From the NCBI GenBank assembly GCA_023379265.1, contig JAMCUI010000004.1, positions 9,273 to 73,272 of the forward strand: a DNA stretch of 64,000 bases, read 5' to 3'. This document shows, one piece after another, positions 8,033 to 60,285 of this stretch. The notes beneath the pieces were generated by a model. That model made no database searches, had not been told where the DNA came from, and saw only the letters and a program-made list of their open reading frames with translations. This stretch comes from Patescibacteria group bacterium. GTDB taxonomy: Bacteria; Patescibacteriota; Microgenomatia; 2-02-FULL-39-11. Both the position numbers and the translations under genes were made by a program. Each line of letters begins with the position of its first letter. Position 1 is the stretch's first letter.

Positions 8033-8035
8033 TTC

Positions 8036-9604
8036 CTAAAAATATCCTGTTTTTATAAGTTTTTTTCTTTCCTCTTGATCCACCCATGCCGGAAACGGTT
8101 GGTTATCTTTCTGCTCATACACCGGTTGTTTATCAAGTATGGTATTTAATTTATTTTCCATTGAGGCAGCTATTCCTGGGTATTCGAAAATAACATTTTT
8201 TGTCTCATTATAATCATTATCCAGATTGTATAATTCACGCATTATATTGCCATTGAAATTCTGATTTATTATCAGCTTCCAATCCTTAGTCAAAATAGCC
8301 TGTTTACCTATCTGTAAACGTTGAGTAACAACATATTTATTCTCATAGGTAGAAAATAGATCATTCCCCTGAAATTGTGCGGGTGTGCTTATGCCCAAAA
8401 TATGAAATAATGAAGGAGCAATATCAATACTCTCTGCCAGTTTACCAATCACCTGTGGTTTTGCCCCCGGTATGTACATAATCAATGGTACATGAATCTC
8501 TTCGTTATATAAATCTGCACCGTGAGACCAATTACCGTGTTCCTGAAATTCTTCACCATGGTCAGCAGTGATTATGACTACAGTATTTTTCAGGAAATTT
8601 TTATCCTTAAGATATTGGAAAAACTTTTTCAGTTCAAAATCCAACTCATAAATTCTAGCCTCATAAAATGCTTGAATATACTTTCTTCTTTCATCTAGGG
8701 GGATATTTGAAAAAGCACTCATATAACTATCTACCCTTTCATCAAAAAACTGTGCGGTTTCAGCATATGATGACGAGTCGATATACTTTTGCGTATACAA
8801 TGTGAGAACATTACAATAATCTCCAGACGGATTTCCTTTTGGTATTAAATTTTTAATTCTATCAGGGTGTAGATTCATTAATTCTTCATAAGTCTTTTTA
8901 CATAAATCATTATATGAAATATAAGCAGTGGCGGGACCGTTATAAAATTTCTTAATGTCCTCTTTTTTGGGAATATATGGTATGTGTACCCAATATGAAT
9001 GAAGAAGAGCAAAGAATTTTTGGTCTCCTTTTATATCCTTATTCATATCAGCCATCCATGTTTGAGGGTCATCGGCAGATTCAATAAGTTTAAATCCTCT
9101 TCCCAATCCGCGATCCAATGGTTGGTTAATATCTCCTATGGAACTGGCATACATTGTCAGGTAACCGTTTTTTTGGAGTATCTGCGTCAATGTTACGATC
9201 TGGTTGCTTAAATTACTCACTAACGGAATAATCATTTTATGAGAAGATGGTAATAGGGAAGTGAAAATGGAAAATCGGTTATCCAAAGTATATGAACTCT
9301 GACTGTATGAATTTTTAAAAAGGAATGATTTGCTAGCAAAATCACAAAGGTTGGGAGCAGTATTTTTAATATACCCGTAGCAGGGTAGACTCTTGGCCCG
9401 CAGTGGAACGATGGTCATTAGTATCACGTTACAATCCTTACAGAAACCTTCTGGCAGTATATTTCTTTTTAAAAGATCAATTCCAAATATAGTCTTCAGG
9501 AAAAAAAATTGAAAAGCGGCAAATACCAGAATAAACGCAATAAAAGAAAAACCGACAATATATTTTTTACGGTGTTGTAACATTTTCCACTCAGTTAAAA
9601 ACAT
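8036..9604 (-). CDS. sulfatase-like / LtaS-family alkaline-phosphatase-superfamily enzyme (paralog of 5999..7396)
   Basis: N-terminal TM. Motifs CNVILMTIVPLRA and ITADHGEEFQEHGNWSHGADLYNEEIHVPLIMYIPG. Confidence 0.7.
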   Translation of the reverse strand: MFLTEWKMLQHRKKYIVGFSFIAFILVFAAFQFFFLKTIFGIDLLKRNILPEGFCKDCNVILMTIVPLRAKSLPCYGYIKNTAPNLCDFASKSFLFKNSYSQSSYTLDNRFSIFTSLLPSSHKMIIPLVSNLSNQIVTLTQILQKNGYLTMYASSIGDINQPLDRGLGRGFKLIESADDPQTWMADMNKDIKGDQKFFALLHSYWVHIPYIPKKEDIKKFYNGPATAYISYNDLCKKTYEELMNLHPDRIKNLIPKGNPSGDYCNVLTLYTQKYIDSSSYAETAQFFDERVDSYMSAFSNIPLDERRKYIQAFYEARIYELDFELKKFFQYLKDKNFLKNTVVIITADHGEEFQEHGNWSHGADLYNEEIHVPLIMYIPGAKPQVIGKLAESIDIAPSLFHILGISTPAQFQGNDLFSTYENKYVVTQRLQIGKQAILTKDWKLIINQNFNGNIMRELYNLDNDYNETKNVIFEYPGIAASMENKLNTILDKQPVYEQKDNQPFPAWVDQEERKKLIKTGYF

Positions 9605-11588
9605 CCAGAGGTTTTCCCTGAACGAAATCAGGTATTTTTACTTTAAGGGCTTTCATGATAGTCGGGTACTGGTCAATCTGAACTGCCGGCGTATCACCCA
9701 AAAAGTTGTTTTTCTTTATCCCCGGGCCGGCTATGATAAACGGGGTCCACATCCCCGGATCGTCCTTTGCCAGGATGGCCTGTTTATATCCGGTAATCAA
9801 TGGGGAAGTGAAAACCTTCAAATCGTTTGACATCTCTTCATTCCAACCATAACCCGGGGCATTGGCTATCACCAAATCACCAATTCTTGAAGGATCAAGC
9901 TGCATAAATCTTTTGGCATCCTCCCACTTCACCACCTCTGCCACCGGCTTACTGCCGTCTTCATCCTTCAAGTTTTCCAAAGCGTCGATCACCTGGTTTC
10001 GCAGATATTCATACTCCGGACCGGAGGCACGGTGATAGTCTCCGGCCAAACCGTTGGGGTTTATATAAACATGCGCCATTTTAAGATAAATCACTTTTGA
10101 GTTTTTCCAGTCGATATTCGGTTCTCCTGTTTTGGGATCAATGGTGAATTTCAACCAGCCTTTCTGGGCAAAAAGGTTATTCAGATTCACGTTCCGGTTC
10201 AAGGGTACGGCACCATGGTCGGAACTGAAAACGATAACCGTATTTTTGCCGGAGACTTTTAAGATTTCACCGACTATATTATCCAGCTTCTTGTACATAC
10301 CCCGCACTTCACCCCAAAGCTTTTCCCTTTCCTTATCGGAAATGTCTTTATAATGTATGCTTTTGGGGTCAACATAACCCATCCACCAGCGGCTGGTAAG
10401 CATCTGGTTGGGGGTATAAATGTCCTGAATGACGACATTTGGCGAAAAGTCCTTCACCATGGCGCTTACTGCTTTTGTATGCCACTCAAACGACATATCA
10501 GCCTCATCCATAAATGTCTTTTTATCCTCAGGGTAGTATACCAACTGGGCCGGGAAATTATCGGCAAAATCGATCATAGGACCAACTGAATTCTCCATCG
10601 CACTTGCTGCCTCTGGAGGCTGGGCAATATACTGGTTCAAGTTGTCATAGTCTATCCTGATCCTGAAAAATTTATCGCTTCCCAGTTTTATTACAGTCGC
10701 CTTAAAATGCGTATCAACCGGAATGTCCTTATCGGTGGTAACCCAATGTAAAGTAATGGGAAGCCACCCAGACCATTTGCCGGGTGTCAAATCCGCCAGA
10801 ACATCTTTCTTATCCAGGGAAAAGAGAACATGATCATAGTCCGTTTTACCATTATCCGTCGAATCATAAACGAAAGCGTAAACGGGAGTACCCCAACCAT
10901 CCATTTTCACCTCATAAGGAGGTGAGAAACTTTTGGGAGTATTAACCCACCCTGAAGGAGAAACAGAATCGATGTATTTAGTCAACTCAGCACCAAAGAA
11001 AAAAAGGTGGACCGCCCGGCCCTGTAGAACTCTCTGAAGGAGATTCCCCTTTGTCTCAAAGTTTATGGCATTAAAATCTGCACCCCAACCTCCCCATCTT
11101 CCTCTTATTACTACCCCTTTTTGGATCTCAGGAGGAGTAGATCCGGGAACTGATAATACCGCAACTTTCATACCGGCATCCTCAAGTGTCTTCCAAATTG
11201 CCGGCACCTTTCTGGCAACCGACCTGAAACCGCCTACTGCTACCTTATCAAGAGGACTGCCAATGGCATGCATGGGGCCGTCATCCACACCATTCACCTC
11301 GGGATAGGCACCCGTGAGAAGTGCGGCAAAATTGACGGGAGTATGGGAAGGAAAAGTGGGAAACGAATATCCATAAGAACCCATCTCCATCAACTTTTTA
11401 ATATTGGGAAGCTTACCTTCCTTGGCCCATTTATAGATATTAAATAGTCCCGGCTCGGCACGGACACCATCCGGAATAAACCAGTAAAGCTTGAGAGTGT
11501 TTTGAGGCTGAGTTTTTGGAGAAATAACCTTTGATACACCAAAAATAATAAGAATCAATAAGATAATAACTGCGGCTGTCTTCTTCAT
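9591..11588 (-). CDS. type I phosphodiesterase / nucleotide pyrophosphatase (NPP) family protein, alkaline-phosphatase superfamily; secreted or anchored
   Basis: Signal/anchor MKKTAAVIILLILIIFGV. Motifs LYWFIPDGVRAEP ... FPTFPSHTPVNFAALLTG ... VIVFSSDHGA. Confidence 0.65.
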   Translation of the reverse strand: MKKTAAVIILLILIIFGVSKVISPKTQPQNTLKLYWFIPDGVRAEPGLFNIYKWAKEGKLPNIKKLMEMGSYGYSFPTFPSHTPVNFAALLTGAYPEVNGVDDGPMHAIGSPLDKVAVGGFRSVARKVPAIWKTLEDAGMKVAVLSVPGSTPPEIQKGVVIRGRWGGWGADFNAINFETKGNLLQRVLQGRAVHLFFFGAELTKYIDSVSPSGWVNTPKSFSPPYEVKMDGWGTPVYAFVYDSTDNGKTDYDHVLFSLDKKDVLADLTPGKWSGWLPITLHWVTTDKDIPVDTHFKATVIKLGSDKFFRIRIDYDNLNQYIAQPPEAASAMENSVGPMIDFADNFPAQLVYYPEDKKTFMDEADMSFEWHTKAVSAMVKDFSPNVVIQDIYTPNQMLTSRWWMGYVDPKSIHYKDISDKEREKLWGEVRGMYKKLDNIVGEILKVSGKNTVIVFSSDHGAVPLNRNVNLNNLFAQKGWLKFTIDPKTGEPNIDWKNSKVIYLKMAHVYINPNGLAGDYHRASGPEYEYLRNQVIDALENLKDEDGSKPVAEVVKWEDAKRFMQLDPSRIGDLVIANAPGYGWNEEMSNDLKVFTSPLITGYKQAILAKDDPGMWTPFIIAGPGIKKNNFLGDTPAVQIDQYPTIMKALKVKIPDFVQGKPLDVFN

Positions 11589-11665
11589 CTTTACTATTTA
11601 CCAAAGCATAAGATTTTATTCCGATAAATGTCAAGACGAAAAAAGAGGCATATAACAAGAGCCAA

Positions 11666-11690
11666 AATTTATCGGCAAGCCTTGCCGCCT
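11666..11690. terminator. short hairpin (cggcaa-gcc-ttgccg) between the pilin block and the NPP gene; weak terminator candidate
   Basis: Inverted repeat followed by a T-rich run on the + strand and by ATAAATTTT on the - strand. Confidence 0.3.
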
Positions 11691-11698
11691 TTTCATTT

Positions 11699-12229
11699 CT
11701 ACTGGTAATTCCTCAGAGATATCGTGCTTTGGTATTCCAAAGTATTATAACTACCAGGAGTGGGGGTCAAAGATGTCCCGCTGTAATTTACGGTATAGTT
11801 TATAAAAACATACTTTGGGGAAGTGGGAGGAGTAGGGCAGACTATGCGGAAATTGCATCCTGATACATCAACCTTGGAACTGGTCAGGGATACCATTCCT
11901 GTTGGGGTAGGATTCGGCCAGGCGGAAATAGAAGATATTTGATTTCCGCTGCTACAGTCAAACATTGTCGTGTTTCCATCGGGATTCGTAATGGTAAGCT
12001 GGCTGGTGTTTGAATTACATTGTATTTGCTGTATGTCTACAGCATTCCTTACCATAGATTCCATCACCGACATTGCAAAATCACCGTTTTGTTTAATTTC
12101 CTTCAGAGTCTCGCTTCTTGTCTGGGATTTTATTCCCAAAATAAATATCTGGGTGGTAATGATACCGATTATCCCAACCAAAGTGGTAACTATCAAAAGC
12201 TCTATCAGTGTAAAACCATTTTCTCTCAT
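11699..12229 (-). CDS. type IV pilin / pseudopilin with prepilin-type N-terminal cleavage/methylation domain
   Basis: N-terminus MRENGFTLIELLIVTTLVGIIGI has the G|FTLIE prepilin motif followed by a hydrophobic helix. Confidence 0.75.
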   Translation of the reverse strand: MRENGFTLIELLIVTTLVGIIGIITTQIFILGIKSQTRSETLKEIKQNGDFAMSVMESMVRNAVDIQQIQCNSNTSQLTITNPDGNTTMFDCSSGNQISSISAWPNPTPTGMVSLTSSKVDVSGCNFRIVCPTPPTSPKYVFINYTVNYSGTSLTPTPGSYNTLEYQSTISLRNYQ

Positions 12230-12258
12230 AATTATCTTATTTTCATATATTCTTTATC

Positions 12259-12762
12259 TTAATTCCAATTAGTCAAACATGACGATATGTCCACTTCAGG
12301 AGCTGGGGTTACACCCACAGCTCCTTTAGACCATTCCACTTTTGCCGTAATCTTATACGCCACGGGAGTGGGAGTTATTGTTGCTACCGGTAACGGACAG
12401 TCAGCGGGATTAGAACCGGAAATTTGAAGCGATTGGCCATAAGTTCCTGTCGGTGTAACCGGAACCGGAGTAAGGCCGCTGTTTATGTAGCAAGAGGAAA
12501 AACAGTTAGTAGTGAGAGAGCCCAGTCCGCCCGAATCCCGTATCACTCTTGCACGCTCGATCTGTTGGTTGGCAAGATTGGTAGCGATGCTCTTATTTTC
12601 CGAAAAGATAGAATTTCGTATGGCATATAGTTCAATAGCTGTAATACCGGACATAAACAGTATGATAAGAGTCAGCGCTACCAATACTTCAATCAGTGTT
12701 TGACCGCGTGTTATCAGACCTGCCGAGTCGGAAGCAACTCCTGTGCTAACATCAATGATCAT
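12259..12762 (-). CDS. pilin-like protein with an extended leader (MIIDVSTGVASDSAGLITRG|QTLIEVLVAL)
   Basis: G-QTLIE variant of the prepilin motif plus a hydrophobic helix. Its 5' end lies inside the 78-bp tandem repeat. Confidence 0.6.
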   Translation of the reverse strand: MIIDVSTGVASDSAGLITRGQTLIEVLVALTLIILFMSGITAIELYAIRNSIFSENKSIATNLANQQIERARVIRDSGGLGSLTTNCFSSCYINSGLTPVPVTPTGTYGQSLQISGSNPADCPLPVATITPTPVAYKITAKVEWSKGAVGVTPAPEVDISSCLTNWN

Positions 12763-12975
12763 AAACTTTAATATCTAAGGACACGGTGTTATCAGACCTG
12801 CCGAGTCGGAAGCAACTCCTGTGCTAACATCAATGATCATAAACTTTAATATCTAAGGACACGGTGTTATCAGACCTGCCGAGTCGGAAGCAACTCCTGT
12901 GCTAACATCAATGATCATAAACTTTAATATCTAAGGACACGGTGTTATCAGACCTGCCGAGTCGGAAGCAACTCC
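12709..12975. repeat. 78-bp tandem repeat, about 3.4 identical copies, spanning the junction of two pilin genes
   Basis: Unit starts at 12709, 12787, 12865 and 12943. Each unit carries, on the - strand, TAG, a 12-nt spacer and ATG with 20 further codons, giving the mini-ORF MIIDVSTGVASDSAGLITPCP*. Confidence 0.9.
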
Positions 12976-13527
12976 GGCAGAATTTATACTAATTCTGTAA
13001 TACCCGTCAGCCGGGGCATTTTTATTACTCATACAAATTACCGCCGGCTGACTTACTGTCCCAGAGTTTTCGGTAAACAATATCCTTGCTGTATCAGGCG
13101 GTGTAATATAAGGCGTCACTAAAACATCCTTGGAGAAAGTAAAATTTTGTGTAGAAAACTGGCTGCTACCACACTTGCCATATATTTGTTTATTTGTAAA
13201 GTCGACATACCACCCGTCCCATCCTGTTGAAGAGTCAGGAGAGCAATTGCATACGCTGCAGTCTATCTCACCATTATATGACCTGCTTTGGGCATCCCTC
13301 AAAATGTTTTTCATATTCTGACCTGCGGAAATGACCGTCTGTTTCTGGTTTAGTGTGGCATAGCCGGCAAAACTTACACCCAAAAGAAGAAATATGACCG
13401 TGACAACCACCAGGATCTCAATGAGGGTAAAACCACTCAACAGTTGTGAGTTGTTCCGCCGCTTGCGTGATCCCGCTGAGGCGGGATGAGTTGTAAGTTG
13501 TGAGTTATTTTTTATTTTTTGAGTCAT
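12931..13527 (-). CDS. type IV pilin-like protein with a long leader (…NNSQLLSG|FTLIEILVVV)
   Basis: Prepilin motif and hydrophobic helix. The C-terminus ...SAGVASDSAGLITPCP* is part of the 78-bp repeat. Confidence 0.75.
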   Translation of the reverse strand: MTQKIKNNSQLTTHPASAGSRKRRNNSQLLSGFTLIEILVVVTVIFLLLGVSFAGYATLNQKQTVISAGQNMKNILRDAQSRSYNGEIDCSVCNCSPDSSTGWDGWYVDFTNKQIYGKCGSSQFSTQNFTFSKDVLVTPYITPPDTARILFTENSGTVSQPAVICMSNKNAPADGYYRISINSAGVASDSAGLITPCP

Positions 13528-13573
13528 TTTATAAACTATTAACTAACAACCAACAACTTACAACCCAACCAAA

Positions 13574-14089
13574 TTAAGGATTTGTCACCTGATAATTACA
13601 ATTACTGCCACATAAAGTGCCCCCGGAATCGTTACAATAGGCACTTGAGGCACCGGTACTGCCGTTTTCCAAATGTGCACACAAATCGTAGTGCAATGAG
13701 TCAGTCTGGAGGTAATAATAAGCAAATGCAGGCGATTTGGGATCGGAAGGATACTTCGCTATATAACTGCTGTCCAGACTCGGTATGCCTGTAGTAGTAG
13801 GCAAGGGATAAGATGAATTTTCGGACTTATAGATCTCAAGGGCGGAGCGCACCTGTTCCAGATCGGATTTGCGCAAAGCATCCCGGCCGTTTCTTGTCAT
13901 GGCTTGATATCCGGTCACGCCGATTGTAGACAAAAGGGCAACAATTGTAGCTGCCACCAGAATCTCAATAAGTGTAAAACCGAACATCGGTTGTAAGTGG
14001 TGGGTGGTGGGCCCGCCGGCCGGCTCGTCTCGCGGTGAAGCGGGCGAGGCAGTTTGCGGGTAAACTCTGTTTGATTTGTTCTTTGACAT
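13574..14089 (-). CDS. type IV pilin-like protein (…MFG|FTLIEILVAATIV)
   Basis: Prepilin motif. I trimmed the start to Met9 of the track ORF so that it does not overlap the upstream stop at 14092-14094. The true start is uncertain. Confidence 0.65.
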   Translation of the reverse strand: MSKNKSNRVYPQTASPASPRDEPAGGPTTHHLQPMFGFTLIEILVAATIVALLSTIGVTGYQAMTRNGRDALRKSDLEQVRSALEIYKSENSSYPLPTTTGIPSLDSSYIAKYPSDPKSPAFAYYYLQTDSLHYDLCAHLENGSTGASSAYCNDSGGTLCGSNCNYQVTNP

Positions 14090-14091
14090 GT

Positions 14092-14580
14092 TTACTGCTG
14101 ATTTGAAACGCAAAAATAATTTGGGGACTCAGACTCAAGTCCTGTGCAGACGGTATAGGATGAGGTAGTACAGTTTGAAGCGCCGGGAGTCGGCCCACAG
14201 TAATATGGAGTCCCCTGGGGGTCAACCGGAACAGCGGGCATAATGCTTATCGGTGGAGTGGGACAATTTATAGCAGTAAAAAAGCTGTTTCCGCCTCCGG
14301 CAGGAGTGATATAAGCATAACCGCAAACGGAATAATACTGCTCCAGTGCAGATTGAACTTCCTTAATATCACTTTTTCTTTTGGCATCCCGTCCTTTTTT
14401 CTGGGCGCTTGAGAAGGATGTCAGGCCCATGGCGATAAGTACCGTAATTATGGAAATAACAACCAACAACTCAAGCAGGGTAAAACCATAGTTATCGTTA
14501 TGGATAGATTTCGATTTATAGTCTGAGACTGTTAATCTACCAAAGATTTGAGATTTGAGATTTGAGATTTGAGATTTCAT
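14092..14580 (-). CDS. type IV pilin-like protein (MKSQISNLKSQIFGRLTVSDYKSKSIHNDNYG|FTLLELLVV)
   Basis: Prepilin motif. The start is taken at the ATG immediately after the upstream gene's stop; ATG 14592 is an alternative. The leader contains a heptanucleotide repeat. Confidence 0.65.
   Translation of the reverse strand: MKSQISNLKSQIFGRLTVSDYKSKSIHNDNYGFTLLELLVVISIITVLIAMGLTSFSSAQKKGRDAKRKSDIKEVQSALEQYYSVCGYAYITPAGGGNSFFTAINCPTPPISIMPAVPVDPQGTPYYCGPTPGASNCTTSSYTVCTGLESESPNYFCVSNQQ
14545..14577. repeat. heptanucleotide simple-sequence repeat (GATTTGA)x4.7 on the + strand, equal to (TCTCAAA)n on the coding strand, in the first codons of a pilin gene
   Basis: gatttgagatttgagatttgagatttgagattt read directly from the sequence. 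Confidence 0.9.
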
Positions 14581-14581
14581 A

Positions 14582-15064
14582 TTAAGGTTCATGTATAGTA
14601 TAACTGTTTCCGGTACTAGTATTGCAAGGAGAAACAGGAGTGAGGTCTTTATCCGGATCCACAGCATTCTCAAGACAGGCAGAAAGAGCATATTGTGACG
14701 TACTGCCGGGATTATATATATAAGGTGTGCCTGTCAGGCTTCCCGGATCGCACGGAACTTTTCGCAAGTAAATATTTCCGCTACAGTTGGAGCTTGAAGA
14801 CCAGCACTGTCCGCATATGGAAGCCGGAAATGCGCCCGTTGTGGGATATCGCTGATATTGATCATTTAATTTATATAGTTCGAGGGCTTTTTGGATATTT
14901 GATAAATCACCTTTCCTTTCAGTGTCTCTAGCCCTTTCACGGGCTCCCATGAAATTGGGAAAGAGTACAGCAATTACCATGGAAATTATAGCTATCACCA
15001 CAAGAAGCTCGATAAGGGTAAAACCTGAATTCAGTTGTGAGTTGTTTTTTATTTTATTTATCAT
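14582..15064 (-). CDS. type IV pilin (MINKIKNNSQLNSG|FTLIELLVVIAIISMVIAVLF)
   Basis: Canonical prepilin leader and cleavage motif. C-terminal Cys pair. Confidence 0.85.
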   Translation of the reverse strand: MINKIKNNSQLNSGFTLIELLVVIAIISMVIAVLFPNFMGARERARDTERKGDLSNIQKALELYKLNDQYQRYPTTGAFPASICGQCWSSSSNCSGNIYLRKVPCDPGSLTGTPYIYNPGSTSQYALSACLENAVDPDKDLTPVSPCNTSTGNSYTIHEP

Positions 15065-15107
15065 GTCGTGAAACTGGCTACCTGCTACTTTCTACATATT
15101 ACATAAA

Positions 15108-15665: not shown

Positions 15666-16436
15666 TCAAAACCCCATAAATTTTATGGAAAAAGACCATA
15701 TGCTATATCCGAATAGAAGAGAAACATAAGTGGCTGCCGCAAGAAAAGGACCAAAAGGTATAGTGCTTTTCATTTTTTTCTTACCCTTTATTACCAGTAT
15801 CAGGGAAAAGACCGCTCCTGTCAAGAAAGCCAGGTAAAAAGAAACTATGACAGCAGGGTAACCGAGCACAAGTCCCATGGCAAAAGCAAACTTCACGTCT
15901 CCCAACCCCATACCTTTACCTTTAGTGGCAACAGTCAGAAGGAGGAAAATCAAAAAAGCCGCCAAAGCGGAAAAGAAATTGTTTAAGAACTGGTTGATAT
16001 CAAAAAAAAATAGATATAAAAAACCTGATATCACCATCAGAAGTACTATCTGATCAGGAATTATCCTGTATTTAAGGTCCGCACCAAAAACCACAATCAG
16101 ACATCCTGTGAGCAACAACCAATATAAAAACTGGAAATCGCTTACCCCAATATTCTGAGAAAAAAGTACATACGCCGTAAAAGAAAGGAAAAATCCAGTG
16201 AAGATTTCCGATAGGGGATACTGCCTTGATATTTTTTTACCGCAATATCTGCATTTTGCGCTAAGAGCAACAAAGGAAAATACTGGAATAAGATCGTACC
16301 ATGCCAATTTGTGCCGGCAAAAGTCGCAATGCGACCTTCCTGAAATCACATTTTCACCTTTAGGCAACCGGTCAATAAGCACATTCAGGAAAGAACCAAT
16401 GAACAGTCCAGCGATAAAAATAATGAGTATCATCAT
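15666..16436 (-). CDS. pilD: prepilin peptidase (A24 family)
   Basis: N-terminal LIDRLP plus CDFC...CRYC zinc motif and polytopic membrane domains. Confidence 0.85.
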   Translation of the reverse strand: MMILIIFIAGLFIGSFLNVLIDRLPKGENVISGRSHCDFCRHKLAWYDLIPVFSFVALSAKCRYCGKKISRQYPLSEIFTGFFLSFTAYVLFSQNIGVSDFQFLYWLLLTGCLIVVFGADLKYRIIPDQIVLLMVISGFLYLFFFDINQFLNNFFSALAAFLIFLLLTVATKGKGMGLGDVKFAFAMGLVLGYPAVIVSFYLAFLTGAVFSLILVIKGKKKMKSTIPFGPFLAAATYVSLLFGYSIWSFSIKFMGF

Positions 16437-34631: not shown

Positions 34632-35471
34632 ATGAAAATTGACGGCAGAAAAATCGCCTACGGAATAAAAAATAGCCTGAAGAAGCAGGTAAACATCATC
34701 CTTTCTCAAAATATTTCTCCTCATCTTGCGGTAATTATTGTCGGGAAGGATAAAAGTTCGCTTGCCTACGTCAGGCAAAAACAAATAACCGGCGCCGATA
34801 TTGGAGTAAAAGTATCTGTAATATCCTTTCCTGATAATCTGGCGCAAAATAAGCTTTTTTCAGAAATTGACCGATTGAACCAAGATCGGTCAGTCCATGG
34901 CATCATAATCCAAAGGCCTCTACCAATAACCGTAGACAATATAAAACTTGATAAGGCCGTAACTCCACAAAAAGATGTTGATGGCTTTCACAAAAATTCC
35001 TTATTCCGCCCGCCAATAGCCCTAGCCATAATGCATATATTACATAATATATTTAGCACTATAAAAAATGATAAAAATGAAAGTTTTTCCGGCTGGCTTT
35101 CAAAAAAGAAAATACTGGTCATCGGTAGGGGAGAGACTGGTGGTAAACCTATAGCAAATTATTTGATGAAAAATAATTTATCTATAACTATAGCTCATAG
35201 TAAAACAACCGACTTAAAAAGGGCGTGTCTTACCTCGGAAATTATCGTAAGCTGTGTAGGGAAGTCAAACATTGTGCGACATGATATGATAACAAATAAA
35301 ACAATCCTGATTGGAGTCGGACTGCACCCTGAGGATAACAAACTACGGTCTGATTATGATGAAGCTGAAATCGCCCAAAGAGCCGCTTTTTACACACCAG
35401 TTCCAGGAGGTGTAGGACCTGTTAATGTAGCATGTCTCTTTGAAAATCTAGTTAAAGCGTGTAAGATATAG
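34632..35471 (+). CDS. folD: bifunctional methylenetetrahydrofolate dehydrogenase / cyclohydrolase
   Basis: AYVRQKQ ... VIGRGETGGKPIANYL ... TPVPGGVGPVNVACLFENL. Confidence 0.9.
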   Translation: MKIDGRKIAYGIKNSLKKQVNIILSQNISPHLAVIIVGKDKSSLAYVRQKQITGADIGVKVSVISFPDNLAQNKLFSEIDRLNQDRSVHGIIIQRPLPITVDNIKLDKAVTPQKDVDGFHKNSLFRPPIALAIMHILHNIFSTIKNDKNESFSGWLSKKKILVIGRGETGGKPIANYLMKNNLSITIAHSKTTDLKRACLTSEIIVSCVGKSNIVRHDMITNKTILIGVGLHPEDNKLRSDYDEAEIAQRAAFYTPVPGGVGPVNVACLFENLVKACKI

Positions 35472-35628
35472 AAGATTTTACAGATCTACCGGACCTGTTA
35501 ATGTAGCATGTCTCTTTGAAAATCTAGTTAAAGCGTGTAAGATATAGAAGATTTTACAGATCTACCGGACCTGTTAATGTAGCATGTCTCTTTGAAAATC
35601 TAGTTAAAGCGTGTAAGATATAGAAGAT
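35415..35628. repeat. 76-bp tandem repeat x2.8 whose first copy is the 3' end of folD
   Basis: Unit starts at 35415, 35491 and 35567. The last copy is truncated. Confidence 0.9.
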
Positions 35629-36284
35629 TAATACCTCTTATCAATAAACTCCATTTTCCCGTTATCAATCTTTAAGTACTGACCATAACCCCAGCGAATA
35701 AAACCTGTATTTATATATCTCTCCCTTAAATTAAACTCAGCCAGATGACTGTGTCCGCATACCAAAACAGTATTTTCCGGAAGATTGCTATTTAACCATT
35801 TTCTCATCCGGTTATTCTGACTTTTATAATAACTAAGTAGCGGCTTGCCCAAAATGGCCAAAGGTATCTTTTCCCGCAAAAACTGGTAAGCAGCCGTCAG
35901 TATCCGGCCATGAGGCAACCACAAATACCTGTCGTCAGCAGCTGGAGCTATACGGCAACCGTGCTCTATATGCAGGATTTTACCTCCGGCTTTCATTTTA
36001 TATATGTTCCGCTGGCTGACCGAAAAAAGATTCAAACTTTTATCAGACAGGCTTTTCCGGTCATGGTTACCAAAAAGATAAATAGTTTCCCGGGATTTTA
36101 ACAAAGGGAATAATTTTTTCCAGCCGCTTTCGAGAAAATCATCAAGGCTAACAATATACCCATCCCAGAAATCGCCATTTATTATCACTCTATCGGCAGG
36201 AGTGATAAGTCTGGTAAGGAAATCAAATTTAGTCTTTTCAAACTTTTTTGTCAGATGAGTATCTGAAAACACTACGGAAATCAT
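35628..36284 (-). CDS. calcineurin-like metallophosphoesterase
   Basis: VFSDTHL, INGDFWD, GNHD and CGHSH motifs. I chose the internal Met (MISVVFSDTHL) to avoid overlap with the xer gene. Confidence 0.7.
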   Translation of the reverse strand: MISVVFSDTHLTKKFEKTKFDFLTRLITPADRVIINGDFWDGYIVSLDDFLESGWKKLFPLLKSRETIYLFGNHDRKSLSDKSLNLFSVSQRNIYKMKAGGKILHIEHGCRIAPAADDRYLWLPHGRILTAAYQFLREKIPLAILGKPLLSYYKSQNNRMRKWLNSNLPENTVLVCGHSHLAEFNLRERYINTGFIRWGYGQYLKIDNGKMEFIDKRY

Positions 36285-36300: not shown

Positions 36301-37245
36301 TTACTTGCGGTGAAATTTTTGATGAACCTGGCGCAGCTGCGGGTTAGTGACGTGTGTATATATCTGGGTTGTCGAAATATTTTTGTGCCCAAGCATCTCC
36401 TGGATCGAGCGCAAATCAGCTCCGGCTGACAATAAATCTGTGGCAAATGAATGTCTCAGCCCGTGCGGTGTAATCTTTACAGGCAACCTGGCTTTTTTGA
36501 CATATTTCTCCACAATCCTTTGGACTGAACGTACATTCAGTCTTGCCGCCTCATTTTCCCGTCCCGGTGAAGCTTTCCTGCCCGCATAACGAATAAATAA
36601 TGGCGAAAACGTATCCTCCCTTTCCTTCAAGTAGCGCTCAAGCCACAGGACTGCTGAATCTGACAGAAAGACTACCCTAGGCCGTCCGCCCTTTCCTATC
36701 ACACCAAACTCTTTTCTTTCAAGATTTATGGAGTCGCGGTTGAGCCGCGTCAGTTCGCTCACGCGAAGTCCGGTGCTAAAAAGCACCTCTAATATGGCTT
36801 TATCCCTCATGCCCTGGGGCGTAGAGATATTGGGCATATTCAAAAGCCTTTCAACCATCTCCCGATCAAGAAACTTCAGCGATCTGCTCTCCGCCTTTCC
36901 CAACTCTACTTTTTCAGGATTCAGAGTGGGCTTATCCTGCCTTATAAGAAACCTCAAGAAAGCCCTAAGTGCAATCAGATGATAATTTTGCGTAATGTGT
37001 TTGAGAGTCAGACCGTGGTCATCTGAATATCTGGATAAAAATAACCTGTAATCCCTTACCGTTTCTGCCTTTATTGAGTCTGTATCTGATATAGTAGGGG
37101 ATTGCAAGGCTCCAAATTGCAAAAACCTGTTTAGATAATGCCTGTAGTTCCTGATCGTTAACCTCGAACAATTCCGTTCAAGTTCCAAATAGATCAGAAA
37201 CTGATCAATCGCTTCAGATAGCTTCATTCTTACATTTTGCGACAT
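36301..37245 (-). CDS. tyrosine site-specific recombinase, XerC/XerD family
   Basis: C-terminal HGLRHSFATDLLSAGADLRSIQEMLGHKNISTTQIYTHV carries the R-H-R-Y catalytic signature. Confidence 0.85.
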   Translation of the reverse strand: MSQNVRMKLSEAIDQFLIYLELERNCSRLTIRNYRHYLNRFLQFGALQSPTISDTDSIKAETVRDYRLFLSRYSDDHGLTLKHITQNYHLIALRAFLRFLIRQDKPTLNPEKVELGKAESRSLKFLDREMVERLLNMPNISTPQGMRDKAILEVLFSTGLRVSELTRLNRDSINLERKEFGVIGKGGRPRVVFLSDSAVLWLERYLKEREDTFSPLFIRYAGRKASPGRENEAARLNVRSVQRIVEKYVKKARLPVKITPHGLRHSFATDLLSAGADLRSIQEMLGHKNISTTQIYTHVTNPQLRQVHQKFHRK

Positions 37246-41626: not shown

Positions 41627-42739
41627 TCATTTAACAAAATCCTCACCTAATACTACTTGAATATCTGTCTGGTTGCTCATGTCTGAACTATTTCCAATCT
41701 CTGATATTTTACACCCGTACCTTTTTTTGAGCTTCGTCACTATATAACTGGTCTTTAGGCTATCTTTTGTAAAGTATATCACGCATGCAAAAGAAACATC
41801 ATTTTGGGCGGTAGTAGTTACCAGAACATTGGCCCCAATATTCCGCAGTATTTTACCAAATTGACCAGCCAGTTGGTTTTGTCCCGAAGCGTTCACAATT
41901 TCCAATGTTACATTTTCCGTACGGATGGCTTGATCCTGAAAGTTATCCTGTATGACTGACGCTAAAATATCTGTATCTATCACTTTAACTGAAGTACCGT
42001 CAGGCAACTTATCATCGCGCAAAACGCTTCTGTCCCCCAGATTTACAAGTCTTATCTGGTCGCTACGAAGACTGGCGATGGATAAATATAATCGCATCAG
42101 ATCCATTTTTGTCAGATTTGTATCCAAAGTATTTGCCCCTGTAAAAACACCCAGCGCTATACCAGGTAATTTCAGGAAAGAAAAATATTTACTTTTATAT
42201 GCAGCTATATCCTTTGAGGATTTTATCGGGAAAGGAAAAGAAACTCCTTTTGTGGCAATATACCCGTCTATAAGAATGTCAAATGAATTCTCTACGCTCC
42301 TTTCCAAAAGCACTCCCGCTGGACGTTTCTTGTCTAATTCACCAAGTTTATATACCGATGAGGCTTTATATTCACCATAACCATAAGGGACATAAAGCAT
42401 TGTTTCTTCCGGAATTACAGCTATATAAGCCTGCCGTTTTACGGGGTCTATCGTAAAAACTGCCATCGGATCGGAATTCAAAACTACAGTCAGACGGTTT
42501 GAACCATCCCATTTGTTTAGATTGTTTAGACTGATAAATCCGGAAAGCAAAAGTATGATTGCCAAACACCAAATTATCAATTTTGGGATACGCTGTCTGG
42601 GGTTTGACTTTCCCCCGCCAACTCGTACCTTAAAGCTTCCGGATCTGTTTGTAGTTCGTCTCATAAAATTGACATCCGGACCAGCTTTGAAAGATATAGG
42701 AAAAATAAGTGAAACAAAGATTAGCAGCTTGTTCCACAA
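41627..42739 (-). CDS. LytR/CpsA/Psr (LCP)-like envelope protein, putative
   Basis: Membrane anchor, then a periplasmic domain. The C-terminus (ENVTLEIVNASGQNQLAGQFGKILRNIGANV) resembles a LytR_C domain. Assignment is tentative. Confidence 0.45.
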   Translation of the reverse strand: MWNKLLIFVSLIFPISFKAGPDVNFMRRTTNRSGSFKVRVGGGKSNPRQRIPKLIIWCLAIILLLSGFISLNNLNKWDGSNRLTVVLNSDPMAVFTIDPVKRQAYIAVIPEETMLYVPYGYGEYKASSVYKLGELDKKRPAGVLLERSVENSFDILIDGYIATKGVSFPFPIKSSKDIAAYKSKYFSFLKLPGIALGVFTGANTLDTNLTKMDLMRLYLSIASLRSDQIRLVNLGDRSVLRDDKLPDGTSVKVIDTDILASVIQDNFQDQAIRTENVTLEIVNASGQNQLAGQFGKILRNIGANVLVTTTAQNDVSFACVIYFTKDSLKTSYIVTKLKKRYGCKISEIGNSSDMSNQTDIQVVLGEDFVK

Positions 42740-50240: not shown

Positions 50241-50307
50241 CTTCGATCCGACATAATGTCGGGCCTCAGTGTAGGCACGAATGTCACACGGTTGTCTAGC
50301 CCATCAT

Positions 50308-50612
50308 TCTATCACCTGAACTACAAAATCTATGCACTCTGTTCCGTTTCAGCTGTCTTTTCCATACTGTAGAACCTTATTCTATCACCTGAACTACAAA
50401 ATCTATGCACTCTGTTCCGTTTCAGCTGTCTTTTCCATACTGTAGAACCTTATTCTATCACCTGAACTACAAAATCTATGCGCTCTGTTCCGTTTCAGCT
50501 GTCTTTTCCATACTGTAGAACCTTATTCTATCACCTGAACTACAAAATCTATGCGCTCTGTTCCGTTTCAGCTGTCTTTTCCATACTGTAGAACCTTATT
50601 CTGTCACCTTTG
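50308..50612. repeat. 73-bp tandem repeat x4.2 covering the dnaB 3' end. Each copy encodes ...MEKTAETEQSA* on the - strand
   Basis: Unit starts at 50308, 50381, 50454, 50527 and 50600. Copies 1-2 versus 3-4 differ by a single synonymous change (AGT versus AGC). Confidence 0.9.
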
Positions 50613-51889
50613 AAAATAAGGTCTATCTCCCCCAAAGCTCCGTTTCTGTGCTTGGCGATTAGAAGCTTGACTATCTGATGATCCCATTTCTCCAACTCTT
50701 GCTCCTCACGGTATAGAAACATCACTACATCTGCATCCTGCTCTATGGCACCTGACTCACGAAGATCCGCCAACTGCGGCACCTTCGTACCTCTTGCTTC
50801 AACAGCACGTGAAAGCTGGGAAACAGCAAGTACCGGAATCTTTAATTCCCTGGCAAGATTTTTTAAGGATTGTGACACTATCGATACTTCCTGCACCCTA
50901 TTATCATACCGGCGGCCGGGGTCTACCAGCTGCAGATAGTCAACAATAAGAAGTTTCACGTTGTGACTTACCTGAAGCCGACGGGCCTTAGTCCTCATTT
51001 CAAAAAGATTTATACCCGGCGTATCATCAATAAAAATTGGCGCTTCGGATAGCTCCCCCATCGCTTCTGAAAGCCTAGTAAAATCATCATCATTTAGTCT
51101 GCCGGTTTTCAGCCTCCAGGCATCTACATCAGCCTGCGCTACAAGTAACCTATCTACTAACTCTTCCTTGCTCATCTCCAAAGAAAATATGCCGACAGCC
51201 TGCTTTTGCGCCAGCGAAACGTACTGGGCAATATTTAGGACAAAAGCTGTTTTTCCTTGTCCTGGACGGGCGGCTAGTATCACCAGGTTGGAATCCTGCA
51301 GTCCAGCCAATTTGTTGTCTAAATCGGAAAATCCTGTAGGCACGCCCCGAAGTGATGAACCTCTCTTGTGCAATTCATCCAGCCTGTCAAAGCTTTCCGC
51401 CAGCGCATCCTTCACCTGTACAAAATCCTGTCTTGATCTTTTCAGAGCAATGGACAATATGTCGCTCTCTGCTTTATCAAGAAGCATCTTTACATCCGAC
51501 TGGTCACCAAAAGCAGACTCACTTATCCTGCCTGAACTTTCGATGAGACGCCGCTTGACATAGTTATCCGTCACTATATTGCTGTATACCTCAATATTGG
51601 CAGAAGTGGGTACGACATTGGTCAGATCTGTCAGGTATGCTGTGCCTCCAACATCCTTGTATTTGCCCATTTTTTTCAGTTGTGAGGTAACAGTGACGAT
51701 ATCAACCGGCTCATGCCGCTCAAAAAGAGCCATCATCGCGGCATAAATATGATTGTGTGCATCCTTATAAAAAAATTCCGGCCTGAGGAAATCAACCACA
51801 TCTGCCAAAGCGTCTTTATCAATAAGTATGGCACCCAACACACTGGCTTCTGCCTGCTCATCATGAGGGGGTATTCTTGCTTCAGCCAT
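50549..51889 (-). CDS. dnaB: replicative DNA helicase DnaB
   Basis: Walker A ARPGQGKTAF, Walker B LLIVDYLQL, and DnaB N-terminal domain ILGAILID. Confidence 0.9.
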   Translation of the reverse strand: MAEARIPPHDEQAEASVLGAILIDKDALADVVDFLRPEFFYKDAHNHIYAAMMALFERHEPVDIVTVTSQLKKMGKYKDVGGTAYLTDLTNVVPTSANIEVYSNIVTDNYVKRRLIESSGRISESAFGDQSDVKMLLDKAESDILSIALKRSRQDFVQVKDALAESFDRLDELHKRGSSLRGVPTGFSDLDNKLAGLQDSNLVILAARPGQGKTAFVLNIAQYVSLAQKQAVGIFSLEMSKEELVDRLLVAQADVDAWRLKTGRLNDDDFTRLSEAMGELSEAPIFIDDTPGINLFEMRTKARRLQVSHNVKLLIVDYLQLVDPGRRYDNRVQEVSIVSQSLKNLARELKIPVLAVSQLSRAVEARGTKVPQLADLRESGAIEQDADVVMFLYREEQELEKWDHQIVKLLIAKHRNGALGEIDLIFKGDRIRFYSMEKTAETEQSA

Positions 51890-52075
51890 AGTTCAACTCC
51901 AGTGGAAATTTAACTAAAATTAAAAACTGCTCATCATGAGGGGGTATTCTTGCTTCAGCCATAGTTCAACTCCAGTGGAAATTTAACTAAAATTAAAAAC
52001 TGCTCATCATGAGGAGGTATTCTTGCTTCAGCCATAGTTCAACTCCAGTGGAAATTTAACTAAAATTAAAAACTG
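51854..52075. repeat. 73-bp tandem repeat x3 covering the dnaB 5' end (start codon plus the first 12 codons plus 5'UTR)
   Basis: Unit starts at 51854, 51927 and 52000. The third copy has a GGGGG to GGAGG change. Confidence 0.9.
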
Positions 52076-52087
52076 CTGTTTTGACGT

Positions 52088-57367: not shown

Positions 57368-58324
57368 ATGCTTTATGACTTCTCTAAAACCGTCCAAACA
57401 AAGACAATGCAGAAAATCTTATCCAAAAGTCATAATAGGGCGATCCTTGCTCTTATTGTCGCCAACAGTATCTGGGGTGCCGCCTCTCCTATATTCAAAC
57501 TGGCTCTTGAAAATATCCCGCCTTTTACCCTTGCTTTTTTCCGTTTTTTCGGCGCCATGGCAATCATTTTCCCTTTTGCCGTAAACGACTTCTGGATAAG
57601 GAAAAAAGACTGGCCCAACCTCATCTTCCTTTCCCTTTGCGGCATCACGGTAAACATCACTTTCTTCTTCTGGGGACTGCAGGAGGCTCCGGCTATAAAT
57701 GCGCCGATTATAGCTTCCTCTGGACCAGTATTTATATACCTTTTTGCAGTATTGTTTCTCAAAGAAAAACTCCACCCCAAAGTATTATCAGGAATAATGG
57801 TTGGCCTTACCGGAGTTCTAGCTATCGTCCTGCAACCAGTATTTACCCATGAGCCTGACGGGCGGATCCTGGGAAACATTTTCTTCGTCATTGCCACTCT
57901 GGGTACAGTAGGATATGTCATTTTCAGCAAAAAAATTGTGAAGTATTATAATGCTGCCACGCTCACTTTCTGGTCGTTTCTTATCGGCAGCCTGACGTTT
58001 TTACCCATGTTTATATGGGAAATGAGAAACCTCCATCCCTTTTACACGATCGATTACCGCGGTTGGATTGGCCTGGCCTTTGGCATATTCCTCTCCTCCG
58101 CTTTAGCTTATTTCCTTTATGAATGGAGTATAAAAAGTCTCCTAGCCCAGGACGTGGGAATATTTACATATATCGATCCGGTTGTGGCGGCAATTATTGC
58201 GGTACCACTATTGGGAGAAGTCATCACACCAATTTACCTCCTGGGATCATTTCTTGTCTTTGCCGGCATCTATGTAGCCGGGGGCCGTCTGCACTGGCAC
58301 CCGATACATTGGTTAAAGAGGTGA
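57368..58324 (+). CDS. DMT-superfamily (EamA-like) transporter
   Basis: 10 TM helices in two EamA-like halves. Start is taken at the ATG just after the hisS stop. Confidence 0.7.
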   Translation: MLYDFSKTVQTKTMQKILSKSHNRAILALIVANSIWGAASPIFKLALENIPPFTLAFFRFFGAMAIIFPFAVNDFWIRKKDWPNLIFLSLCGITVNITFFFWGLQEAPAINAPIIASSGPVFIYLFAVLFLKEKLHPKVLSGIMVGLTGVLAIVLQPVFTHEPDGRILGNIFFVIATLGTVGYVIFSKKIVKYYNAATLTFWSFLIGSLTFLPMFIWEMRNLHPFYTIDYRGWIGLAFGIFLSSALAYFLYEWSIKSLLAQDVGIFTYIDPVVAAIIAVPLLGEVITPIYLLGSFLVFAGIYVAGGRLHWHPIHWLKR

Positions 58325-58464
58325 CTTCTGCTGCACTGGCACCCGATACATTGGTTAAAGAGGTGACTTCTGCTGCACTGGCACCCGATACATTGGTTAA
58401 AGAGGTGACTTCTGCTGCACTGGCACCCGATACATTGGTTAAAGAGGTGACTTCTGCTGCACTG
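58289..58464. repeat. 42-bp tandem repeat x4.2 whose first copy is the 3' end of the DMT transporter gene (…LHWHPIHWLKR*)
   Basis: Unit starts at 58289, 58331, 58373, 58415 and 58457. Copies are identical. Confidence 0.9.
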
Positions 58465-58507: not shown

Positions 58508-58715
58508 GCCGGAATGGTGGAATTCTGCTTTACTTCACAGCCTAATCGGCCGGAATGGTGGAAACCGGCCGATTGACTCGGTAAAAGCTAATCACCAACC
58601 TCTGATTTACAACGTTCGGGAACTGGCCGGAATGGTGGAAACCGGCCGATTGACTCGGTAAAAGCTAATCACCAACCTCTGATTTACAACGTTCGGGAAC
58701 TGGCCGGAATGGTGG
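58508..58715. repeat. 77-bp repeated hairpin element (stem GGCCGG / CCGGCC, loop aatggtggaaa) x2.2, plus a partial copy upstream
   Basis: Unit starts at 58548, 58625 and 58702, with a partial copy at 58508. Confidence 0.85.
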
Positions 58716-58773
58716 AAGCAGGCTCGATTGCTACTCTTCCCTTCCTGCAAAATAAATGGTATAATCTACTTTT

Positions 58774-59082
58774 ATGAAAGCTAGTATACATCCTAAATGG
58801 TATCCTGATGCCACAGTCGTTTGTGCCTGCGGTAATACTTTTACTGTAGGTTCAACCAAACAAGCTGTCAGGGTCGAAATCTGCCATAAATGCCATCCTT
58901 TCTTTACAGGAGAGATGAAGTATGTCGATACCATGGGAAGGGTGGAAAAATTCCAGGCCAAGCAAAAACAGGCACAAGCTCAAATAGCCGTACTCGCTGC
59001 CAAAAAGAAAAAGAAACTGGAAAAACAAGCCCAGGAAAGAACCCCAAAAACTCTGCGGGAAATGCTGTTGGGAAATGGTTAG
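58774..59082 (+). CDS. rpmE: 50S ribosomal protein L31
   Basis: [10 protein letters not shown] ... CxC ... [10 protein letters not shown] zinc-ribbon signature. Confidence 0.9.
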
Positions 59083-59255: not shown

Positions 59256-59640
59256 ATGAATAATGATATTGTTATATTAGAAATCCATGGGGCAACAGCT
59301 GACTCGGTCATTTTAGAAATCCATGGGGCAACAGCAGATATGTTAGTATAATTGTTTAACGGATTATGAATACTGACTCGGTCATTTTAGAAATCCATGG
59401 GGCAACAGCTGACTCGGTCATTTTAGAAATCCATGGGGCAACAGCTGACTCGGTCATTTTAGAAATCCATGGGGCAACAGCTGACTCGGTCATTTTAGAA
59501 ATCCATGGGGCAACAGCAGATATGTTAGTATAATTGTTTAACGGATTATGAATACTGACTCGGTCATTTTAGAAATCCATGGGGCAACAGCTGACTCGGT
59601 CATTTTAGAAATCCATGGGGCAACAGGTGGTGATGAAGCC
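59256..59640. repeat. nested tandem duplication of the release-factor gene 5' end. The outer unit is repeated 3 times and contains a 36-bp inner unit ([12 protein letters not shown]) present in 2, 4 and 2 copies
   Basis: Inner-unit starts at 59265 (variant), 59301, 59375, 59411, 59447, 59483, 59557 and 59593. Upstream mini-ORFs are 59256-59351 and 59366-59533. Confidence 0.9.
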
Positions 59641-60285
59641 AATATATGGGCTGCTGACCTCTTACGCATGTATATGCGTTTTGCCGCTTCCCGCAGCTGG
59701 AAGGTAGATTATCTGGACGGGGAAGTAATAAGAATAAAAGGCCCGCAGGCCTATACCCTTCTTCAGTTTGAAGGAGGAGTACATAGAGTACAAAGAATCC
59801 CCAAGACAGAAAGATATGGCAGAATTCATACTTCAACAGCCACAGTAGCGGTCTTACCGGAAATTGAAGAGACTCAAATTTATATAAACCCGCAGGATAT
59901 AGAATGGGACTTTTTCCGAAGCGGCGGACATGGCGGACAAAATGTCAACAAGGTCGCAACAGCAGTAAGGCTCAGACATAAACCTACTGGAATTGTGGTT
60001 TCTGCCCAAAGGGAGAGAAATCAGGAACAGAACCGCCGGATTGCCATGGGACTTCTTCGTTCCAAACTTTGGGAGATTGAAGAAGAGAAAAAAATGCAAA
60101 CACTGTCAAGCGCCAGATCCCTTATCGGCCGGGGTATGAGGGCTGAAAAAATAAGAACCTATAATTTTCCCCAAAACAGGGTAACTGATCACCGCATAAA
60201 CAAAAGCTGGCATAACCTGGAAGATATAGTCGAAGGGAAACTGGACAAGATGCTTTCTACTCTGTCTGAAGCCGCAAACCAATAA
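59548..60285 (+). CDS. prfA: class-I peptide chain release factor, RF1-like (PxT-type), lacking N-terminal domain 1
   Basis: [13 protein letters not shown]...[19 protein letters not shown] (PxT-type codon-recognition loop) and the GGQ motif [12 protein letters not shown]. An in-frame stop lies 6 codons upstream of the first copy of the start. Confidence 0.75.

Follow-up and report, generated by a model that had tools for sequence, protein, structure and literature searches.

Pilin operon and repeat array A1

The 64-kb stretch of contig JAMCUI010000004.1 of a Patescibacteria group bacterium that was analysed here (the window) carries a type IV pilus operon in which the end of one pilin gene (pilin A) and the start of the next (pilin B) lie in a perfect tandem array of 78-bp units. 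This array, called A1, is described below together with similar arrays at other loci of the same window (Table 1). An earlier reading of this DNA, referred to as the original prediction, had given the right coordinates for both pilin genes, which lie on the minus strand, and had noticed a 78-bp tandem repeat at their junction.

Tandem Repeats Finder (TRF) reported A1 at 12708..12975 with a period of 78, 3.4 copies, 100% matches and no indels. A direct periodicity check gave a maximal extent of 268 bp, corresponding to 3 full units and a partial copy of 34 nt, with 0 mismatches. Both methods confirmed the repeat at 100% identity and its predicted end at 12975; the start is at 12708 and not at 12709. 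Because shuffled sequence never reproduced such a periodicity, A1 is not a product of chance.

The coding strand of A1 is the minus strand, on which the array spans the pilin A stop and the pilin B start. Each unit consists of segment a (34 nt, GGAGTTGCTTCCGACTCGGCAGGTCTGATAACAC), which encodes GVASDSAGLIT, followed by segment b (44 nt), which comprises the last three codons of pilin A (PCP), the TAG stop codon, a 12-nt spacer and an ATG with six further codons (MIIDVST). One unit equals 14 pilin A codons, TAG, the 12-nt spacer, ATG and 6 codons, and the locus has the structure L-(ab)3-a-R. In the original prediction the stop, the 12-nt spacer and the ATG of the unit were recognized correctly, but the 15 and 17 codons assigned to its two sides describe the footprint of 1.44 units.

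With a unit length of 26 codons the pilin A stop lies in the first unit and the pilin B start in the last full unit. The view that a frame-preserving duplication of the pilin A end and the pilin B start has stacked small open reading frames (mini-ORFs) is supported. The number of free-standing 21-aa mini-ORFs is two and not three as had been proposed, the third ATG (12762) being the start of pilin B itself. All mini-ORFs have the same 57-nt upstream context as pilin B, which bears out the predicted common initiation context; a Shine-Dalgarno motif is not evident. From the third-unit ATG, pilin B reads through the terminal partial segment a into RG↓QTLIEVLVAL.

No promoter or terminator was found in the A1 unit. 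The unit has no stable fold (z-score -0.34 versus shuffles) and matched no family in Rfam, by which a structured RNA or riboswitch is ruled out. The 64-kb window contains no further copies of the unit and no silent donor cassettes.

A1 is situated within a run of seven pilin-like genes, and the cluster also contains T2SS-E/F-type assembly genes (T2SSF, T2SSE) upstream of the prepilin peptidase gene. In both pilins the leader ends in G before a (F/Q)TLIE hydrophobic helix with Glu at +5, namely LLSG↓FTLIEILVVV in pilin A and ITRG↓QTLIEVLVAL in pilin B. The N_methyl domain (PF07963) matched where it should in both proteins, at residues 31-52 of pilin A with 17.5 bits and residues 19-40 of pilin B with 20.9 bits, both slightly below the Pfam cut-off of 21.2; the domain is present in many pilin A homologs. 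The NCBI name of the identical pilin A protein is prepilin-type N-terminal cleavage/methylation domain protein. The database entries identical to the pilins of the window are MCL4338150.1/MCL5797500.1 and MCL4338151.1/MCL5797501.1, assigned to 'Patescibacteria group bacterium', and the named homologs of both pilins belong to Candidatus Gottesmanbacteria, a group of the Candidate Phyla Radiation (CPR, Patescibacteria). Chromosomal housekeeping genes located nearby include gyrA, gyrB, dnaB, hisS and the gene for an H+-PPase, and the locus is part of a Gottesmanbacteria chromosome.

Table 1. Features of the pilin A/pilin B junction and tandem arrays of the window (RBS, ribosome-binding site; arrows, ends of predicted leaders; the NCBI strain is introduced in the text).
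Feature	Position	Strand	Size or array	Copies in NCBI strain	Remarks
Array A1	12708..12975	minus	78 bp x 3.44, perfect	2.44	TRF and periodicity check
Terminal partial copy of A1	12708..12741	minus	34 nt		Puts 11 pilin A tail residues (GVASDSAGLIT) in the predicted leader of pilin B
Mini-ORF 1	12853..12918	minus	21 aa		MIIDVSTGVASDSAGLITPCP and stop; starts 12 nt past the pilin A TAG
Mini-ORF 2	12775..12840	minus	21 aa		Same product, MIIDVSTGVASDSAGLITPCP and stop; stop followed by 12 nt and the pilin B ATG
Pilin A	12931..13527	minus	198 aa		Prepilin motif LLSG↓FTLIE; conserved C-terminal tail and stop in first A1 unit
Pilin B	12259..12762	minus	167 aa		Leader MIIDVSTGVASDSAGLITRG, then QTLIEVLVAL; ATG in last full A1 unit
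Prepilin peptidase, PilD type	15666..16436	minus			A24_N_bact 1.6e-31 and Peptidase_A24 1.5e-17; heads the pilin gene run
Array A2	35415..35629	plus	76 bp x 2.83, 100% identical	1.83	folD-like gene, last 18 codons and stop; extends to the convergent gene's stop
Array A3	50306..50609	minus	73 bp x 4.16	3.16	Last ~20 codons and stop of dnaB and downstream sequence
Array A4	51854..52077	minus	73 bp x 3.07	1.07	RBS, ATG and first 12 codons of dnaB
Array A5	58289..58464	plus	42 bp x 4.19	3.24	Last 11 codons and stop of EamA gene and downstream sequence
Array A6	58548..58732	not assigned	77 bp x 2.4	2.40	Intergenic, upstream of ORF 58774..59082
Array A7	59277..59626	plus	182-bp composite unit x 1.92 (36-bp and 74-bp sub-units)	0.92	5' end of release-factor-like gene
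Locus A8	41629..41677	minus	49 bp only (0.68 unit)	2.68 (72 bp, perfect)	3' end of LytR_C gene

Copy number of A1 in a second strain

The exact pilin A and B proteins are also encoded on contig JAMDBJ010000009.1 of the metagenome-assembled genome (MAG) GCA_023487465.1, which we used for comparison and call the NCBI strain. Over 48.9 kb aligned at 99% identity or more there are about 117 substitutions between this strain and the window (0.24%, or 99.76% identical), and over window positions ~9,700 to 23,500 the contig is the same but for six substitutions. The A1 array of the NCBI strain measures 190 bp (2.44 units) and that of the window 268 bp (3.44 units), with identical flanks. The pilin A and B proteins are the same in the 3.44-copy window and in the 2.44-copy strain.

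The Logan contigs of sequencing runs SRR10244963, SRR10278331, SRR10252151 and SRR10267473 all end at window position 12946, which is 30 nt inside A1, and a downstream Logan contig has its start at 12737, 30 nt in from the array's opposite end. The Logan graph is built at k=31, so that 30 nt equals k-1, and the contig ends therefore reflect true branch points in the reads. Since segment a has a length of 34 nt, these breaks prove at least 1.44 copies of the unit in all four runs. The copy numbers 2.44 and 3.44 themselves are likely real because b-a-b paths are absent at 1.44 copies.

Origin of the unit and of the shared peptide

The array is absent from the A1 site of a ~90%-identical sister lineage, as found in MAG contig CAZFNL010000017.1 and in three Logan contigs that read through the site. 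In a scan of genome contigs for related alleles this ~90% sister MAG was the only match. Its pilin A ends with GVASDSAGLITPCP and a stop codon, followed by a 29-nt spacer and a pilin B starting with MKYCSGG↓QTLIE, and the site contains a single a-b-like sequence. The orthologous A and B genes of distant Gottesmanbacteria share 10 nt or 4 nt (ATGA) at their junction (L015 9486-10465; L017 9498-10465), in a cluster that is syntenic throughout with the order PilD, five pilins, A, B and one further pilin. The A1 array is the derived state.

Among 37 pilin A homologs, ~33 show conservation of the tail of the protein (consensus YY.I.VN.AG.(V/I)SD.GG(L/I)...C.P). This tail occurs in none of the leaders of 50 other pilin B homologs, which have the motif G↓QT(I/L/M)(I/L)E in common. 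Because the tail is conserved in pilin A and absent from the pilin B leaders of the sister lineage and the homologs, GVASDSAGLIT is native to pilin A only. Its copy in the pilin B leader is a product of the duplication and not its cause. The original prediction was right in that the peptide is present in both genes, but it explained the duplication by homologous slippage on a pre-existing shared peptide, which reverses the order of events and does not agree with a sister lineage that has the tail in pilin A only, nor with its absence from all 50 homologous leaders. The leaders of pilin B homologs vary from 3 to 35 residues (40 homologs with a complete N-terminus), and the 20-aa leader found here is inside this natural range.

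For the 34-nt partial copy of A1 we put forward, as a hypothesis, a two-step origin. Deletion of 44 nt between two ACAC tetranucleotides, one closing segment a and one at the b/R boundary, would convert an (ab)n array to exactly L-(ab)n-1-a-R and would shift the pilin B start to the previous unit, in frame. An intermediate allele encoding a short-leader 'MIIDVSTRG' pilin B was not found among the members of the protein cluster, and a scan of metagenome contigs of the JGI collection with the 21-nt start of pilin B (ATGATCATTGATGTTAGCACA) gave 0 matches and no extra alleles.

The pilin leaders of this operon appear to be generally hypervariable. The leader of pilin A (13430-13527) contains NNSQL twice and is entirely unlike the leader of the sister lineage (198 vs 187 aa). 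In addition, a 7-bp repeat, AGATTTG x 4.9, is located at 14544-14577 just upstream of the called start of pilin gene 14092..14580, and the longer ORF reads it as KSQISNLKSQI.

Other arrays in the window

The window harbors seven near-perfect arrays including A1, and an eighth locus (A8) is expanded only in the NCBI strain (L019 16835-17027). A1 is one of at least eight such repeats at gene boundaries and is not specific to pilin genes. At six of the eight loci the units are 72-78 bp long. Perfect duplications in the window have either trivial periods of 8-14 bp or periods of 36, 42, 73, 73, 76, 77 and 78, with none between. Every array has a stop-containing or start-containing geometry or is intergenic, and for the parts of arrays within ORFs the unit length is a multiple of 3 (A7, 36 bp; A1, 78 bp). 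Similar to A1, A4 creates stacked mini-ORFs (two of 26 aa), and A7 gives an in-frame 12-aa repeat inside the ORF and stacked pseudo-start ORFs upstream of it. As in A1, a Logan contig ends 30 nt inside A2. The ORF downstream of A6 presumably encodes ribosomal protein L31, judged from its sequence.

The release-factor-like gene at A7 (59548..60285) encodes only 245 aa with PCRF and RF-1 domains, and the N-terminal in-frame 12-aa repeat of its product copies part of a 13-residue segment. In the region 59256-59640, two duplicated pseudo-starts give rise to ORFs of 31 and 55 aa upstream of this gene.

The unit composition is near the window average, with an A fraction of 0.24-0.33 on the plus strand and, for the minus-strand arrays, a coding-strand A fraction (= T) of 0.26-0.37. 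Hairpins in seven units tested were no more stable than in shuffles (z -0.01 to +0.95), which rules out hairpin stalling as the cause of the common unit length. An origin from tRNA genes, considered since 73-78 nt is the size of a tRNA, is also ruled out: ARAGORN found a single tRNA-Leu, outside the arrays. Arrays with a period of 30 bp or more were not seen in 12 kb of the sister lineage or in ~45 kb of distant Gottesmanbacteria pilus loci, both of which are small samples.

Apart from chance matches of 7-9 nt, the units of the eight loci are mutually dissimilar, and no extra copies of them occur in the window. They are therefore local duplications and not copies of a dispersed element, and a dispersed mobile family was rejected on these grounds. 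Insertion of a small mobile repeat between the pilin genes, resembling a mycobacterial interspersed repetitive unit (MIRU) or a transposable element of the miniature inverted-repeat type (MITE), would suit the intercistronic site, the 46-101 bp size class and the internal ORF, all described for MIRUs. The A1 unit, however, contains nothing but native sequence from the 3' end of pilin A and the 5' end of pilin B, has homology over its first 44 nt to the pilin A tail of the sister lineage, and shows neither terminal inverted repeats nor a stable fold. Together with the dissimilar, locally confined units at the eight loci, this makes such an insertion hardly conceivable.

The distribution of the arrays also bears on the proposal that A1 is a programmed hotspot of pilin variation or shuffling, in which recombination between units would fuse or exchange pilin modules or switch expression on and off. 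The unit length is divisible by 3, a reduction of the array to 0.44 units would join pilin A and B in frame, and a comparable sub-unit collapse is seen at A8. However, the mature pilins are identical in strains of different copy number, an A::B fusion occurs in none of 88 homologs and no pilin A match exceeds 205 aa, neither a further copy of the unit nor a silent cassette occurs in the window, and the unit length is unable to shift the frame of either gene. Moreover, arrays of the same kind are found on housekeeping genes: besides dnaB, the ends of the folD, EamA, LytR_C and release-factor genes are affected. Shuffling as put forward in the original prediction is thereby largely refuted and must be regarded as very improbable.

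Turnover between strains

Copy number differs between the window and the NCBI strain at seven of the eight array loci, in both directions; only A6 is equal. At six of the eight the higher copy number is that of the window. Because the differences run in both directions, a one-sided assembly collapse is excluded; in particular, collapse in the NCBI MAG is ruled out by A8, which is expanded there and unduplicated in the window.

For two loci both states were found in independent contigs. The single-copy state of A4 is present in a contig of SRR10244963 that is 100% identical to the NCBI strain and reads through the site, and the array in a contig of SRR10278331 that is 100% identical to the window and stops 30 nt inside it. 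Conversely, the A8 site is read through, unduplicated, in a contig of SRR10278331, and a contig of SRR10252151, matching the NCBI strain at 100% identity, ends 30 nt into the expanded array of that strain. A 5-nt direct repeat (CTGCT) borders the single-copy A4, which is what microhomology-mediated duplication would lead one to expect.

The A3 array shows concerted evolution. All four window copies of its unit have A at position 18, where the three copies of the NCBI strain all have G; at a second position each array is mixed. Since the strain-specific base is found in every copy, the arrays must have been re-expanded or homogenised after the strains separated.

These data also allow us to judge whether the array or its copy number could be unreal, arising from an assembler that loops on a short repeat. 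The arrays, at 176-350 bp, are longer than typical short reads, and the higher copy numbers of the window at six loci would fit such an artefact. Against this, the edges of A1 coincide exactly with breaks in independent k=31 contigs of four runs, two arrays have partial copies of 5-8 nt that are too short for any pre-existing repeat to cause looping, the units bear strain-specific single nucleotide polymorphisms, and at A8 the expansion is present in the NCBI strain and lacking in the window, with both states represented in independent contigs. We therefore regard an artefact, which the original prediction had linked to an invariant copy number, as most improbable; for A1 itself the assemblies give 3.44 and 2.44 units, with no array in the sister lineage and with contig breaks in four runs.

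Two further differences between the strains were noted outside the arrays. The gene at 8036..9604, which belongs to the sulfatase family according to its counterpart in the NCBI strain, is only ~62-75% identical to that counterpart, and the flanks within a few hundred bp of it are at least 99% identical (region 7800-9600). This looks like a strain-specific replacement of the gene by recombination. Also, two non-tandem indels distinguish the strains (window 37353-37493 versus L019 12646-12700) beside a gene for a XerC/D-type integrase (36301..37245).

Comparison with known repeat systems

Among classical systems, the arrays come closest to the exact tandem repeats (ETR) and other variable-number tandem repeats (VNTR) of Mycobacterium tuberculosis. 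The ETR loci consist of locus-specific exact repeats with units of 53-79 bp, and their copy number varies between strains (PMC3914561). In size class and behaviour the 72-78 bp arrays described here are similar. Like a VNTR, A1 has head-to-tail units of high identity, a strain-variable copy number with conserved flanks, a local origin, and no counterpart in relatives. Unlike the M. tuberculosis loci, the arrays occur in a CPR host, at a density of eight loci in 64 kb as compared to tens in 4.4 Mb; their units are nearly always perfect and they straddle a gene stop or start.

MIRUs resemble the arrays in being tandem units of 46-101 bp between operon genes, with a small ORF able to relay ribosomes downstream. 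An action on downstream translation has been proposed for relay by short ORFs and MIRUs (PMC12548453). However, MIRUs form a dispersed, sequence-related and possibly mobile family, whereas the arrays found here are made of local native units that are unrelated between loci. Furthermore, in MIRUs the ORF shares bases with the stop and start codons on either side (-4 spacing), whereas the mini-ORFs are set apart by 12-nt spacers. Neither of the features that define MIRUs, a single sequence family and the ORF overlap, is found in the arrays.

A further likeness is to the tandem repeats of Borgs, the archaeal extrachromosomal elements of Methanoperedens. These repeats are described as perfect, of recent and independent origin and variable between close relatives, with flanking partial copies that are left unexplained (PMC9879509). 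Both systems are pervasive, perfect and locus-specific, start in or at ORF ends, stay in frame within ORFs and turn over fast. The Borg examples described have units of 18-21 nt, and Borg units are strongly enriched in A, whereas the units found here are mostly 72-78 bp with average composition. The Borg repeats are also carried on extrachromosomal elements, whereas the present arrays lie on a bacterial chromosome among housekeeping genes, with few repeats inside proteins. The arrays have the perfection, the partial flanks and the turnover of Borg-type repeats, and lack the A enrichment and the carriage on a Methanoperedens Borg.

Pilus genes are also known for phase and antigenic variation. 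In Neisseria, gene conversion between pilE and pilS and homopolymer slippage in pilC either change the sequence of the pilin or turn a reading frame on and off. The likeness to A1 lies in a repeat at a pilus locus with a copy number that changes between strains. Unlike the Neisseria systems, A1 alters neither mature pilin and cannot cause a frameshift.

Our literature searches for tandem repeats in the Candidate Phyla Radiation (perfect repeats), Patescibacteria or Gottesmanbacteria found nothing, and neither did one on the accessions of the runs and assemblies.

Interpretation of A1

From these observations we conclude that A1 is probably a young, strain-variable VNTR or minisatellite that results from a duplication process acting chromosome-wide, favouring units of ~72-78 bp, and that it was kept where it is harmless. 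The duplications and expansions across the chromosome would most simply be due to replication slippage or flap-type duplication between short direct repeats, after which selection would purge arrays that damage genes. A duplication that includes a stop codon would spare the upstream protein and one that includes a start codon the downstream protein. A1 is of both types, since its first unit holds the pilin A stop and its last full unit the only canonical start of pilin B. The 11 extra in-frame residues fall in the pilin B leader, which is predicted to be cut by the PilD-type peptidase of the operon at G↓QTLIE. With the stop in the first unit and the repeat-derived residues in a cleavable leader, both mature pilins would be the same at any copy number.

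The array may still have consequences for translation. In place of the ancestral stop/start overlap between pilin A and B there are now one or two decoy ORFs of 21 codons, separated by 12 nt. It is plausible that translation of pilin B depends on the A1 copy number and that its output may fall or change; a translational coupling effect is plausible because distant relatives have overlapping A and B genes.

An adaptive form of this idea is that A1 acts as a translational rheostat: selected copy numbers would tune, via the decoy mini-ORFs, how many ribosomes reach pilin B and thereby set the ratio of minor pilins, giving a heritable and reversible variation of the pilus. The ancestral overlap (ATGA or 10 nt) implies a coupling that A1 has broken, the mini-ORFs share the 57-nt upstream context of pilin B with no evident Shine-Dalgarno motif, copy number varies between strains, and ribosome delivery to a downstream gene by short ORFs is a recognised mechanism (PMC12548453). 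On the other side, the identical architecture is found at dnaB and the release-factor gene, and arrays also occur at 3' ends where there is no coupling, so that no pilin-specific selection is needed to account for A1. Besides, only two A1 alleles are available. We consider the rheostat an unlikely explanation.

Several points weigh against A1 as a harmless product of a chromosome-wide process. Its neutrality is what we infer from its position, and an adaptive effect on pilin B dosage may exist. At k=31 the 34-nt partial copy would by itself cause the observed contig breaks, so that the Logan data prove nothing above the lower bound of at least 1.44 copies, and the figures 3.44 and 2.44 rest on two MAG assemblies, in which arrays that exceed the read length can be miscounted. 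The narrow period range of 72-78 bp is without a demonstrated cause, and the term genome-wide is based on a single region of 64 kb. Finally, a single slippage event at a microhomology fails to explain the large terminal partial copies (34/78, 63/76 and 49/72), for which a second event must be assumed.

Taken by itself, A1 is an ordinary bacterial VNTR with a neat tolerance mechanism. The surrounding pattern of dense, perfect arrays of ~75 bp with fast turnover at the gene boundaries of a CPR bacterium is of more interest than A1 alone. More tentatively, this pattern could reflect a hyperactive tandem duplication process with a ruler of ~72-78 bp that deposits perfect arrays at gene boundaries, with a turnover per locus that is orders of magnitude above the substitution rate per site, as a chromosomal counterpart of the Borg repeats; we see this as a possibility somewhat short of even odds. 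If it is correct, the empty, filled and collapsed alleles in public reads could reveal how such repeats and their partial flanks are formed.

The arrays provide strain-typing markers for an uncultivated CPR bacterium, and they warn that copy numbers in MAGs are unreliable at loci of this type. The pilin junction illustrates that, by duplication, the end of one gene can supply its neighbour with new leader sequence and give rise to decoy ORFs. Together the loci form a tractable natural system for studying the origin of perfect tandem repeats with long units, a question that the Borg literature leaves open.

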